A stretch of DNA of 64,000 nucleotides, taken from the NCBI GenBank assembly GCA_016930695.1, contig JAFGGD010000041.1, forward strand, positions 1 to 64,000. Direction: 5' to 3'. This document shows, one piece after another, positions 35,941 to 37,821 of this stretch; within the stretch, counting starts at the first letter, position 1; each line of letters begins with the position of its first letter. The position numbers and the translations under genes were made by a program. Origin of the DNA: Candidatus Eiseniibacteriota bacterium. GTDB taxonomy: Bacteria; Orphanbacterota; Orphanbacteria; Orphanbacterales; Orphanbacteraceae. The notes below the pieces were generated by a model. That model did not search any database and had not been told where the DNA came from. It was given only the letters and a program-made list of their open reading frames with translations.

Positions 35941-36000
35941 TCGCTCTCGCTATCGGGATCGCTATCGGGATCGAAATCGCAATCGAAATCGGCCCCGATA
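35941..36000. repeat. 12-bp periodic minisatellite (gctatcgggatc x2, gaaatcgcaatc, gaaatcggcccc)
   Basis: Read directly. The same GAAATC(N6) motif recurs at 37481-37516 and, reverse-complemented, at 121-146, each time at the border of a repeat element. Confidence 0.6.
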
Positions 36001-36094
36001 GCGATGATAAGCCGTAAACGAGAACGGGAACGCGGCCGGGTCCTGCCCTCCATCCGCCCGCGAAGGGCGCCTGCCATTCGCGCCTTCGCACTCG

Positions 36095-36156
36095 GCACCT
36101 TCGTAACCAGATACCTTTTCGCGAACGGGCGAGAGAAAAGGTATCTGGTTACGAGG
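36095..36156. repeat. 62-bp perfect-hairpin direct repeat, copy A (18-bp stem cgtaaccagatacctttt / aaaaggtatctggttacg, 16-nt loop)
   Basis: Identical to copy B at 37712-37773 in the same orientation. Together they bracket a low-GC cassette. Confidence 0.8.
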
Positions 36157-36229
36157 GCGAGGATTTCATTAGCTAAAAGTAAATTTTCATGCGATAATAA
36201 TTATTAGATTCACCGGACAGGAAAAGAAG

Positions 36230-37439
36230 ATGAATCACCCCCACTTCCATTCCCATGTATGCCGGTTATTTCTCGTCATCCCGCTCCTTTGCGTACTTTT
36301 CGCGGCAGTGACCGCGTCCGGAAGGACGTGGTATGTGCTCCCTGATTCGACAGGTGACGCGCCTGATATTCAGGCAGCGATCGACTCGAGCGGTGATGGA
36401 GACACGGTGCTCGTGGCGGCGGGCACGTACTATGTGAATCTTCAGATCACCGGGATTACCGACTTTACGCTGATCAGCGAATCAGGCCCCGAAGTAACCA
36501 TCCTGGACGGTAGTCCCTCGTTCAATCCGCAATATCGTCAAGTCGTTCGAGTTTTCCAATCCCCAGACGCACTCGTCGAGGGATTCACGATCCAGAATGC
36601 GAACCCAAGTACGATAGCTGGTTGGGGTGGGGGGATAAGGATCATAGGTGGGGGCCGCGTGACGATACGCGGAAACATCATCAGGGCGAACAACAGCAAG
36701 AGCCGTGGCGGTGGGCTGGCCTTTTCAAACCCTTGCGAAGGTTGCGGGGGCAGCGTGATCGAGGGCAACCAGTTTATTGAAAACACGTGCTCCAATAATG
36801 CCGCGGGTATTTGGATCTATGGGGTGGATGACGGGTGTGTTTTTATCAAAAACAACTTATTTCAAGGCAACGTTGGGGGCTATGGAGGGATAAGAGCCGA
36901 ATACTCAAACATTATATTGACCAACAACATATTTATGGCTAACGAGTCGACCTCATACTGTCTTGATATAGTGGGCACAGGTCGAGTGGAGGGAAATCTG
37001 GTTGTCCTGAATGAGGGGGGGGGGGATAGGTGTTGACGAAGGAGTGATCGCCTCGAATACAGTCGTAAGTAATAGCTGGGTTGGGATCAACGCGATGAGT
37101 TGTGAAACATATAATAATTTGTCGGTGGGGAACCAAATGGGCATCGGTACTTGCTACGTCGAGACAATCGTATGTAACAATTCGTGGGGCAATGTTGATT
37201 GGGATTATTATCCTGGTTGCGACTCCTGTGGAATGAATGGAAACATCTGTGTGAATCCCCTTTTCTGTGATCCGGAGAACGGCGACTACTCGATTGCGGA
37301 TGAATCGCCTTGTGCACCGGGGAACTCCGGAGGTTGCGGTCTGATAGGAGCGTTAGATGTGGGGTGCGTGTTCACGTCGGTCCCGATAGCCCGGCGGGAT
37401 ACGACCTCTTGGGGAACGATCAAGAAGATGTTCCGCTGA
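36230..37439 (+). pseudogene. Secreted right-handed parallel beta-helix repeat protein, interrupted or phase-switched by a +1/-1 frameshift at an 11-G homopolymer (37015-37025); frames 36230..37036 and 37011..37439
   Basis: Signal peptide MNHPHFHSHVCRLFLVIPLLCVLFAAVTASG. Beta-helix repeats (GNIIRANNS..GGGL, IEGNQFIENT, IKNNLFQGN, LTNNIFMANES) continue across the frame boundary into the second ORF (NTVVSNSWVGIN...NPLFCDPENGDYSIADESPCAPG). GC content is visibly ~50% against ~70% background, with an AT-rich promoter-like stretch at 36171-36229. Confidence 0.7.
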
Positions 37440-37480
37440 TCCTGCGCACCCCCACACCCTCACTCGATCCCCAATCGCGA

Positions 37481-37516
37481 TCAGACTCGAAATCCAAATC
37501 GAAATCGCAATCGAAA
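37481..37516. repeat. GAAATC-type 12-bp periodic repeat (gaaatccaaatc gaaatcgcaatc gaaatcgag)
   Basis: Same motif family as 35941-36000 and the reverse complement at 121-146. Confidence 0.55.
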
Positions 37517-37590
37517 TCGAGTTCTGGGGACACAATACGGAATACTAAAAACCCCGAGTTCTGGGGACACAATACGGAATACTAAAAACC
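37517..37590. repeat. 37-bp tandem direct repeat x2 (gagttctggggacacaatacggaatactaaaaacccc); its ggggacacaatacggaat segment recurs inverted at 37685-37702
   Basis: Exact tandem duplication read directly. The 18-bp inverted partner 180 bp downstream gives a MITE-like TIR-bounded unit of ~180 bp. Confidence 0.7.
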
Positions 37591-37711
37591 CCGGTATCAC
37601 GGGCATGCATGCATCCCGATCGTCTGGCTGTCCTTGGGGAATCACCCCAGGTCACACGAGAAGGAAGCCCCGACGAAACGGTGAATTCCGTATTGTGTCC
37701 CCGGAATTCAC

Positions 37712-37773
37712 GCACCTTCGTAACCAGATACCTTTTCGCGAACGGGCGAGAGAAAAGGTATCTGGTTACGAGG
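37712..37773. repeat. 62-bp perfect-hairpin direct repeat, copy B
   Basis: Identical to 36095-36156. Lies ~50 bp downstream of the S9 peptidase stop on the minus strand. Confidence 0.8.
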
Positions 37774-37821
37774 AATCCTTCTTGATCTTCGTGTTCTTCG
37801 TGGTGAGATTTTCGCTCCTGA

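Follow-up and report, generated by a model that had tools for sequence, protein, structure and literature searches.

Identical hairpin repeats around a low-GC beta-helix gene in Candidatus Eisenbacteria and the family of extragenic palindromes to which they may belong

Does a gene of unusual base composition, bracketed by two identical palindromes, represent a mobile cassette or an ordinary gene between ordinary repeats? The question is raised by a locus in a Candidatus Eisenbacteria genome, which was analysed within a stretch of 64,000 nt (hereafter the window, to whose numbering all coordinates refer unless a contig is named). To our knowledge, Candidatus Eisenbacteria are known only from metagenome-assembled genomes (MAGs), and a limited literature search turned up no account of extragenic palindromic repeats in them.

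Architecture of the locus

The features of the locus are as follows; bit scores refer to the covariance model R1, described in the next section.
34738-35892, + strand: third and last gene of an ABC-2 transporter operon (Pfam ABC_tran, ABC2_membrane_3)
35935-36005, + strand: hexamer array A, with the pattern (ATCGNN)n and the exact 22-mer ATCGAAATCGCAATCGAAATCG
36095-36156, + strand: hairpin copy A, recognized by exact repeat, arm count and folding (80.4 bits)
36157-36229, + strand: AT-rich leader of 33% GC that includes an extended -10-like motif, TGCGATAAT, at 36190-36198
36230-37439, + strand: gene with a +1 frameshift, encoding a secreted protein with a right-handed parallel beta-helix
37015-37025, + strand: G11 homopolymer, longer than any other run in the window and the site of the frameshift
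37463-37521, + strand: hexamer array B, with the same exact 22-mer as array A
37518-37709, + strand: 37-bp tandem duplication, structured spacer and 25-nt inverted copy
37712-37773, + strand: hairpin copy B, identical to copy A (80.6 bits)
37786-37798, + strand: flank motif TCTTCGTGTTCTT; in L006, an unrelated metagenome contig, it recurs directly 3' of hairpin 1
37822-39738, - strand: S9 family peptidase (638 aa, MBN1826575.1), convergent with the beta-helix gene

A repeat search bears out the two exact copies of 62 nt, in the same orientation, on which the original prediction was built. The 20-nt arm occurs four times in the window (both arms of both copies) and not once in 100 shuffles. Folding gives a stem of 20 bp in each copy, extended to 23 bp in copy A, where 36098-36120 pairs with 36135-36157, and a loop of 14 nt. 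Copy A has a folding energy of -45.1 kcal/mol (z = -10.1) and copy B one of -38.0 kcal/mol (z = -6.7); both strands give very stable hairpins. Each copy is thus a perfect stem plus a loop and not a 62-bp perfect palindrome. No U-tract follows the hairpin on either strand and a terminator scan gave no flag. Copy A follows the ABC operon (ATPase at 32481-33482, permeases at 33479-34741 and about 34738-35892), 203 nt after its stop codon. Copy B lies 273 nt past the beta-helix stop codon and 48 nt past that of the convergent S9 peptidase gene.

The 1,555 bp between the copies have a GC content of 51.5%, in keeping with the ~50% estimated at the outset, versus 65.7% for the whole window; the background of ~70% assumed earlier was too high, at about 66% by measurement. 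The beta-helix coding sequence has a GC content of 52% and a GC3 (GC at third codon positions) of 0.57-0.60, whereas its neighbours range from 0.76 to 0.90, the last ABC-2 gene (0.86) and the S9 peptidase gene (0.84) being typical of the host. Both minisatellite arrays anticipated from the sequence, one before copy A and one inside the segment, are real. Array A sits within a larger imperfect palindrome (35916-36039), and array B shares ATCCAAATCGAAATCGCAATCGA with the array of a contig from another metagenome (L004). The 37-bp tandem repeat, likewise confirmed, is exact (37518-37554 and 37555-37591) and is followed by an inverted 25-nt copy at 37685-37709. As a whole, 37518-37709 is predicted to form a long hairpin resembling a MITE, a miniature transposable element with inverted repeats; no further copy was found within the window. 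A Rfam scan of 35500-38300 returned one sub-threshold chance match and nothing meaningful, and we know of no attC family in Rfam. The window holds no tRNA genes, blastn of 35893-37821 against plasmids and phages gave no match, and the expected absence of an integrase holds for its about 48 open reading frames (ORFs), among which no recombinase or transposase domain was found at Pfam E <= 1e-5.

The promoter-like stretch claimed for the segment corresponds to the leader of 73 nt. A TGnTATAAT-type motif stands upstream of all five homologues examined, as seen in an upstream alignment, and a simple -35/-10 scan did not flag the -10-like motif. The single secreted beta-helix gene of the original prediction survives as a beta-helix gene and not as a single intact ORF, since the +1 frameshift at G11 splits it in two (36230-37036 and 37011-37439). 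One G fewer (G10) restores a protein of 402 aa that aligns over its full length with the homologues and reads N-E-G-G-G-I where these have a conserved N-x-x-x-G-I. The frameshift is present also in an independent Logan assembly (contig L001, 1,390 bp). Neither the G10 (in-frame) nor the G12 product occurs among the roughly 15 billion proteins of one collection. Among the homologue genes, those of L008, L012 and L013 contain no run of at least 8 and those of L014 and L015 no run of at least 7. The frameshifted gene may simply be a pseudogene.

Related palindromes in other genomes

A covariance model combined with a metagenome scan revealed at least eight copies of the hairpin family in three Eisenbacteria genomes, and all eight are intergenic and at gene 3' ends. 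The window has three, contigs of one metagenome that amount to 3 kb have at least three, and GCA_043809585.1 has at least two. The scan for exact arms found arms with 20/20 nt on two contigs (L004 and L006) of one other metagenome. The model, R1, was built from these copies together with a copy spotted by eye in contig L015 (4303-4362), the match of which, being in the training alignment, is by construction. Beyond its training set, R1 matches contig L012 at 2222-2281 and the following feature of the window; L012 and L015 are parts of the same second MAG, GCA_043809585.1.
41294-41350, + strand: third, diverged hairpin, with arms AGGGAACCGGATCCC and GGGATCCGGTTCCCT around a 15-nt loop (24.3 bits, E = 1e-4)
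This third hairpin lies between two convergent genes, just beyond the stop codon of a phosphodiesterase gene. In L004, a gene stop is followed by a hexamer array and then by a hairpin whose loop is 4 nt long. In L006, two hairpins in the same orientation, each at a gene stop, flank a small lipoprotein gene that shows no composition shift. Overall, three family copies are situated between convergent genes or within a few nucleotides of a stop codon, and a conserved hexamer array accompanies some copies in two genomes.

Conservation of the arms is apparent. The arm core ACCAGATACC is invariant in six aligned copies and varies in the L012 and 41294-41350 copies. Five of 20 stem pairs are altered on both sides in a compensatory manner, more than in any of 500 shuffles, and 85% of cells are paired, compared with 34-48% after sliding of the partner by 1-3 columns. 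Some copies look decayed, with a partial tandem duplication in L012 and degenerate arms in hairpin 1 of L006. Loop length is about 4-16 nt. Loops vary from genome to genome, and within a genome they are shared even by unlinked copies (L015 and L012; the two copies of L006). The identity of copies A and B is therefore not, by itself, an insertion scar. Related copies thus occupy further intergenic positions, both in the window and in two more Eisenbacteria genomes, mostly without a shift in composition. They uphold the dispersed REP-type (repetitive extragenic palindromic) element that had been offered as an alternative to a cassette.

Several other searches yielded chance matches or none. The metagenome matches L003 and L005 were discarded as chance. 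A scan for the exact 20-nt arm in a collection of genome contigs that does not contain the source MAG gave nothing real, its one single-arm match, in an archaeal MAG, being judged chance; the 22 single-arm matches of a 16-mer scan of viral contigs, none with a hairpin, were treated likewise. Six-frame translations of the hairpin, compared with a set of 5.8 billion proteins for spurious ORFs over other copies, gave nothing that scored.

Explanations for the bracketed gene

The homologues examined are 43-53% identical to the beta-helix protein (48-53% for the five at unrelated loci), and at these five loci the genes are stand-alone units. Three have GC3 values of 0.50, 0.63 and 0.69, versus ~0.62-0.78, 0.86-0.90 and 0.68-0.88, respectively, for their neighbours; in the four loci with called neighbouring genes, GC3 is 16-28 points under that of the neighbours. 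As far as the sequences compared can tell, low GC is thus a trait of the beta-helix gene family and not of the present locus. Because the homologues are low-GC at unrelated loci, the drop in GC seen here is no evidence of a recent local insertion.

With a probability of roughly 60%, copies A and B are REP/REPIN-like 3'-end palindromes of a lineage-wide family, and the gene between them is an accessory, stand-alone gene with family-wide low GC. On this account both copies would be extragenic palindromes ending transcription units, one closing the ABC-2 operon and the other lying between the convergent beta-helix and S9 peptidase genes. Consecutive units would each end in the same repeat, and so the beta-helix gene would look bracketed. 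This accessory gene, with its own promoter, would encode a secreted protein of the polysaccharide-lyase or adhesin fold type, and in the source genome a +1 slip in a G10 tract would have switched it off or inactivated it. The hairpin could act on RNA or DNA as a 3'-end barrier, a terminator or a stabiliser, and may spread as a selfish REPIN-like element (REPIN, a pair of inverted REPs). The identity of A and B would then come from a genome-specific master sequence or from gene conversion and would not be a scar of insertion. Some observations fit this account less well. Only three copies are present in 64 kb, two of them at one locus; the genome-contig scan and the search with the translated hairpin give no sign of high abundance, and the hairpin lacks a U-tract; the identity of A and B includes 3 nt beyond the stem, and the copies exactly delimit the low-GC segment.

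Identity over 62 nt and exact low-GC borders are just what a recombinational insertion predicts. Promoter, beta-helix gene, array and hairpin could together have entered a resident hairpin as a non-integron excisable islet, by homologous recombination over the 62-bp element or through a trans-acting recombinase, leaving one hairpin on each side; recombination between the copies would excise a circle of 1,617 bp. This origin is considered unlikely, yet it accounts for several facts. The borders of the low-GC segment match the exact 62-bp direct repeat, and the segment's non-coding right-hand part (37440-37711, 52.9% GC) is also poorer in GC than the left module (35893-36094, 64.4%). The beta-helix family occupies a different locus in each genome and keeps its atypical GC3, as a moving gene would. 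A family hairpin follows the L015 homologue, and by eye the 3' UTRs of this homologue and of the present gene look alike in their first bases. A hairpin of the family stands just 3' of the beta-helix gene in two of six loci (copy B in the window, and L015), which hints that gene and hairpin may travel together. However, no recombinase is encoded in the window, unlinked copies of one genome share their loops, so that identity is expected without insertion, and L006 has hairpins bracketing an ordinary gene without a shift in composition. Nor do flanking direct repeats surround the homologues in L008, L012 and L013; the other flanks show a weak 27-nt direct repeat (L014) and inverted repeats (L015). 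An empty site was sought via S9 peptidase orthologues and not found, because the closest orthologue is 61% identical and synteny is lost, with other neighbours in L016 and L017.

A more general version of such movement is speculative and rather improbable. Hairpins would serve as portable landing pads between which stand-alone, low-GC accessory genes, the beta-helix family among them and each with a 3' hairpin, hop from one resident site to another in Eisenbacteria genomes, through recombination at the hairpin or an enzyme that recognizes it. Such hopping would create cassettes bounded by direct hairpins and excised as small circles, and, if real, would amount to a cassette system without integrase or attC sites.

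It is also doubtful that the hairpin is solely a conserved bidirectional terminator or 3'-end protector, itself immobile and kept similar by selection or gene conversion. Such a role agrees with the location of every copy at a gene 3' end, three of them between convergent genes or a few nucleotides from a stop, with the high stability on both strands and with the compensatory changes in the arms. It agrees poorly with arms identical at 20/20 nt across unrelated genes and genomes, since ordinary terminators differ from gene to gene, with the missing U-tract, and with the partial tandem duplication in L012 and the degenerate arms of hairpin 1 in L006, which look like repeat decay.

An assembly artefact, in which a low-GC 1.6-kb segment from elsewhere or from a circular molecule was threaded in via the 62-bp repeat, is very improbable. 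In the k=31 Logan assembly of the same run, contigs are broken off exactly at the edges of the repeat (L001 corresponds to 36127-37516 and L007 ends at ~37744), so the graph is ambiguous at short k. Against this, a loop through one repeat with only two other exits has a sole linear solution, X-R-I-R-Y (flank, repeat, insert, repeat, flank), which is the order resolved in the submitted 87-kb contig, and the homologues elsewhere are chromosomal stand-alone genes in long contigs.

The hairpin family and its accompanying hexamer array offer a handle on 3'-end formation, genome plasticity and assembly breaks in this phylum, and the family could be used as a marker for lineage tracking. It also calls for caution, as a gene of odd composition between identical palindromes can mimic a cassette. 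Should the hairpins prove to be sites at which accessory genes recombine, they would represent a new way of capturing genes; the evidence at present favours the ordinary explanation.

Comparison with integrons, contingency loci and REP elements

That A and B are attC sites of a CALIN (a cluster of attC sites lacking an integrase), with the beta-helix gene as a cassette mobilised by an IntI encoded elsewhere, is scarcely credible. The likeness to a CALIN lies in two palindromic sites of the same orientation, 1.6 kb apart, that flank one ORF with a site at its 3' end and no integrase nearby, two attC sites being the CALIN threshold (PMC9024848); AAC and GTT triplets also occur in the outer stem. 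Unlike in attC sites, the perfect 20-23 bp helix has no unpaired central spacer, no separation of R and L boxes and no extrahelical bases, and by inspection TCGTAAC and GTTACGA agree with RYYYAAC and GTTRRRY at 5/7 positions only. Most integron cassettes lack a promoter (PMC9024848), whereas this ORF has its own conserved promoter and leader, and hairpin B is separated from the beta-helix stop by 273 nt of repeats instead of being tightly packed against it. Moreover, the 'cassette' upstream would consist of a housekeeping ABC operon with three genes and the composition of the host, and the other copies of the family stand singly after ordinary chromosomal genes. No integrase was found in the 64 kb, the two sites do not have the structure of attC, and these features do not support the attC-cassette reading put forward in the original prediction. 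The beta-helix segment is probably not an integron-type cassette, given that the hairpin family follows many unrelated genes and that the gene is low-GC in every genome carrying homologues. XerCD/dif modules (IMEX, pdif) and IS200/IS605 ends were provisionally set aside, with no dif-like 11-6-11 site and no transposase present.

In Neisseria, Haemophilus and Campylobacter, simple-sequence contingency loci subject genes for surface proteins to phase variation at homopolymers. Similarly, a G10/G11 tract lies here inside the gene of a secreted protein, and its length sets the frame (G11 out, G10 in) through a one-base slip. Unlike in contingency loci, where polymorphism or conservation of the tract is looked for, the tract is missing in the five homologue genes examined.

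REPs and REPINs are almost exclusively extragenic and hairpin-forming, with a palindromic core and, in REPINs, two inverted REPs around a variable spacer (PMC3337134). The present family is, likewise, an extragenic repeated palindrome (eight copies in three genomes) with inverted arms, a variable spacer and a hairpin. As in Proteobacteria, the elements are short and in many cases directly 3' of a gene, with both orientations represented, two conserved inverted arms, a spacer that varies between copies and variants specific to a lineage or genome (PMC3337134). In contrast to the two short imperfect palindromes of a REP/REPIN, each element here has one long perfect stem of 20-23 bp in a unit of ~55-62 nt, shorter than the ~89 nt of the GI REPIN. 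REPs reach tens to hundreds of copies within a genome; the number per genome here may be low. No RAYT (Y1/HUH transposase) was found in the 64-kb window.

BIME-type composite elements of E. coli combine REPs with conserved linker motifs. The linker of a BIME lies between alternating REPs, whereas here it would be an interrupted array of 6-nt periodicity placed 5' of a single hairpin. Nevertheless, as in a BIME, a palindrome is combined with another conserved motif that is not palindromic, and hexamer array and hairpin follow genes in a fixed order.

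The hairpin-bracketed segment and its setting

The overall observation of the original prediction, a low-GC segment bracketed by hairpins, is real. It is best read, with a probability of about 0.6, as an accessory beta-helix gene of atypical composition, interrupted by a frameshift, between two members of a new REP/REPIN-like family of 3'-end hairpins in Eisenbacteria. The main features are the following.

91-114, hairpin CCCTCTCCCGCAAGCGGGAGAGGG, different from the A/B family, after the array at 119-142
119-142 (-), hexamer array
193-538, tandem and inverted repeat
35952-35993 (+), hexamer array
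36095-36156, hairpin copy A
36230-37439, beta-helix gene, broken into ORFs 36230-37036 and 37011-37439
37492-37521 (+), hexamer array
37518-37709, MITE-like element adjoining copy B
37712-37773, hairpin copy B
41294-41350, diverged hairpin
L004 (metagenome contig) 1338-1373, hexamer array

As claimed, copies A and B are identical over 62 nt and in direct orientation. Their stem is indeed perfect, but the paired part of this '62-bp hairpin' spans only 20 bp (23 bp in copy A) around a 14-nt loop. The 20-nt arm has four matches in the window versus none in 100 shuffles and is therefore not due to chance. Copy A folds at -45 kcal/mol (z = -10) and copy B at -38 kcal/mol (z = -6.7); the opposite strand folds nearly as stably. 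The 1,555 bp between the copies have 51.5% GC; the background is 65.7% over the whole window, not the ~70% first estimated.

To the left of the bounded region is a three-gene ABC-2 transporter operon (Pfam), and to its right a convergent S9 peptidase gene (MBN1826575.1 in the protein database). The peptidase and MBN1826574.1, the N-terminal ORF of the beta-helix gene, are on the same 87,085-bp contig; the window itself is from a Candidatus Eisenbacteria MAG. Pfam assigns window ORFs to transporters, peptidases, phosphodiesterases, sulfate-activation enzymes and the like. Five paralogous type I phosphodiesterase/nucleotide pyrophosphatase genes (PF01663) occupy 41351-43027 and 54196-62972, four of them in a cluster that also has genes for APS kinase and ATP sulfurylase; a sulfatase gene is at 6273-8174.

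A dispersed hairpin family among other structured repeats

A scan for the arms in a genome collection from which the source genome is absent gave a single-arm chance match only. In metagenomes, the same arms (20/20 nt) occur on two contigs of one metagenome, L004 and L006. On L004, a gene stop is followed by a hexamer array and, after ~25 nt, by a hairpin with a 4-nt loop. On L006, the first hairpin overlaps a stop codon and the second, 770 bp further, begins 9 nt past the next stop; the pair encloses a small lipoprotein gene, and a composition shift is absent. A degenerate copy, spotted by eye, lies on contig L015 of a different MAG, 21 nt past the stop of the beta-helix homologue P0006. A covariance model trained on these six copies (A, B, L004, two from L006, L015) yielded two further hairpins. 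One, on L012, another contig of the L015 MAG, scores 44.7 bits and has a loop of that MAG's own sequence. The other, at 41294-41350 (24 bits, E = 1e-4), has a perfect 15-bp stem AGGGAACCGGATCCC with a 15-nt loop and lies between convergent genes, immediately past a phosphodiesterase gene stop. The family thus has at least eight copies in three genomes, these eight all intergenic, which supports the proposal of a dispersed REP-type element.

The core ACCAGATACC is invariant in the six aligned copies and varied in the L012 and 41294-41350 copies. Of the 20 stem pairs, five are altered on both sides, exceeding every one of 500 shuffles, and stem pairing in the six copies reaches 85%, compared with 34-48% when partners are slid. 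Drawn from six related sequences only, this covariation is suggestive and falls short of proof. Loop sequence varies from genome to genome but is common to copies within one genome, even if unlinked. The window hairpin matches the L006 copies much better reversed (score 72) than in the same orientation (score 40), although the side on which a 13-nt motif, TCTTCGTGTTCTT, flanks the hairpin does not differ between them, so that the spacer seems able to flip.

The reported 'GAAATC minisatellites' exist, but each is an instance of a conserved hexamer array with interruptions (ATCGAA ATCCAA ATCGAA ATCGCA ATCGAR ATCG); the interruptions are identical in two genomes, and zero occurrences are expected in shuffled sequence. 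Wherever it occurs, the array is 3' of a gene and shares that gene's orientation, with a strong hairpin after it. Since it is G-poor, with UC every 6 nt, it is conceivable that it is a candidate Rho-loading site. The 37-bp tandem repeat, an exact duplication, lies within 37518-37709; with an inverted 25-nt partner 104 nt downstream (37685-37709) it is predicted to fold as a long hairpin. No other copy of this element was found in the window. Its arm-arm-spacer-inverted-arm layout is shared by 193-538, where a 98-nt unit recurs in tandem with a period of 127 bp and 98% identity, and a perfect inverted 25-mer occupies 514-538. Positions 410-500 are ~80% identical to intergenic L015 4575-4665, in the other Eisenbacteria MAG, and this is a second dispersed repeat family.

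Other repeats accompany the beta-helix homologues. Directly 3' of P0003, at L008 7193-7788 (also on L011), a 53-nt tandem repeat is present in at least 10 copies, each with a small hairpin, CTCTCAATTCGAGAG; in two independent assemblies this array is interrupted by a gap of 100 N. The L014 homologue is trailed by one motif similar to the 53-nt unit. On L015, P0006 is flanked by inverted 40-100-nt repeats (2618-2680, 2901-3000 (+) and 4368-4455 (-)) of the form TGTCATCCCCGCG..GCGG.GATCCAGGAAATCGAAT(C)n GTTCGTCCTGAG, containing C8-C10 runs. Its paralogue P0007 (L012) has the upstream promoter region in common with P0006, and some of the repeat as well (GTTCGTCCTGAG, GTATCGAAGG). Collectively, the 37-bp element, the 193-538 family, the L008 array and the L015 inverted repeats make the intergenic regions of these genomes rich in structured repeat families, with accessory genes among them.

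The frameshifted beta-helix gene and its relatives

The predicted single secreted beta-helix gene is one gene, broken into two ORFs by a G11 run (37015-37025) that shifts the frame by +1 and is longer than any other homopolymer in the window. NCBI annotates only its 268-aa N-terminal piece. Removal of one G (G10) regains the conserved frame and gives a 402-aa protein that aligns end to end with ten homologues (393-411 aa, 43-53% identity); the repaired junction N-E-G-G-G-I coincides with their conserved N-x-x-x-G-I motif. The frameshift is identical in Logan, an independent assembly of run SRR13394437, neither the G10 nor the G12 product was found among ~15 billion proteins, and no G tract was found in the five homologue genes read. 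Therefore, a reversible phase-variation switch is possible but unproven, and a pseudogenising slip leaving a plain pseudogene is equally consistent.

In an AlphaFold model based on the homologue alignment, the stretch between about residues 33 and 330 is predicted as a right-handed parallel beta-helix, which would be continuous through the frameshift site. Block-mean pLDDT is mostly >90 between about residues 160 and 290 and more uneven N-terminal to that; for the conserved Cys-rich C-terminal part, model confidence is low. Among solved structures, the nearest folds are so varied (polysaccharide lyases RbmB and PL6, pectin methylesterase, an adhesin and phage tailspikes) that the fold leaves function undefined. 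By inspection and alignment, the N-terminus looks like a signal peptide. Past it, the N-terminus is strongly conserved across the window gene and P0002-P0011 (RTWYVLPDSTGDAPTIQAAIDSS). The Cys-rich module, which matches no Pfam or NCBIfam entry above curated cut-off, finishes with SWGxIKxLFR at the extreme C-terminus; this end may be a sorting or anchoring signal.

The loci of five homologues were compared. Every one of these genes stands alone, and their surroundings all differ: downstream of an M14 peptidase gene, downstream of glycogen-metabolism genes, between lnt and truA, beside a sigma-factor-like region, and on a short contig. The family clearly changes place between genomes.

GC3 of beta-helix genes and of their neighbours
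Window: 0.57-0.60; neighbours 0.76-0.90
L008: 0.50; neighbours ~0.62-0.78
L012: 0.63; neighbours ~0.86-0.90
L013: 0.69; neighbours ~0.68-0.88, all except one at least 0.82
L014: 0.54; one partial neighbouring gene, 0.79
L015: 0.74

The promoter-like stretch that had been noticed carries a TGnTATAAT-type extended -10 motif, which is present 30-60 nt 5' of the start codon in all six family genes. Low GC3 and this motif recur across the family; the AT-rich leader and the composition shift are thus inherited traits of the family rather than of this locus. Such a family-wide drop neither dates nor localises an insertion here.

Insertion, mobility and known systems

There is room for an insertion in which the beta-helix gene, with a hairpin, entered a resident hairpin by recombination. 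The repeat edges are exactly those of the low-GC segment, and a family hairpin lies 3' of the beta-helix gene in two of six family members. However, loop sharing between unlinked copies of one genome makes the identity of A and B a weaker mark of such an event. Among S9 orthologues, the nearest has 61% identity and no longer shows synteny. A role of the hairpins as sites of recombination that move genes in cassette fashion is improbable. The k=31 Logan contigs end exactly at the repeat edges and are therefore uninformative on alternative junctions; these breaks would also agree with an artefact of assembly or with a 1.6-kb circle separate from the contig, but either is unlikely.

The integron-like interpretation is not supported. 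Among ~48 ORFs covering the window, Pfam finds no integrase, recombinase or transposase, so the original statement on integrases stands. The upstream 'cassette' would be a housekeeping operon with host composition. Extrahelical bases are a further feature of attC sites. What defines these sites is the presence of R and L boxes with a central spacer that stays unpaired, and integron cassettes are mostly without promoter (PMC9024848). In contrast, the stem of copies A and B is an uninterrupted perfect helix, its best R-box candidates agree with the consensus at only five of seven positions, and the beta-helix ORF has its own promoter. REP/REPIN elements are extragenic palindromes with two inverted arms around a variable spacer and a predicted hairpin (PMC3337134), and the Eisenbacteria family has the same properties.
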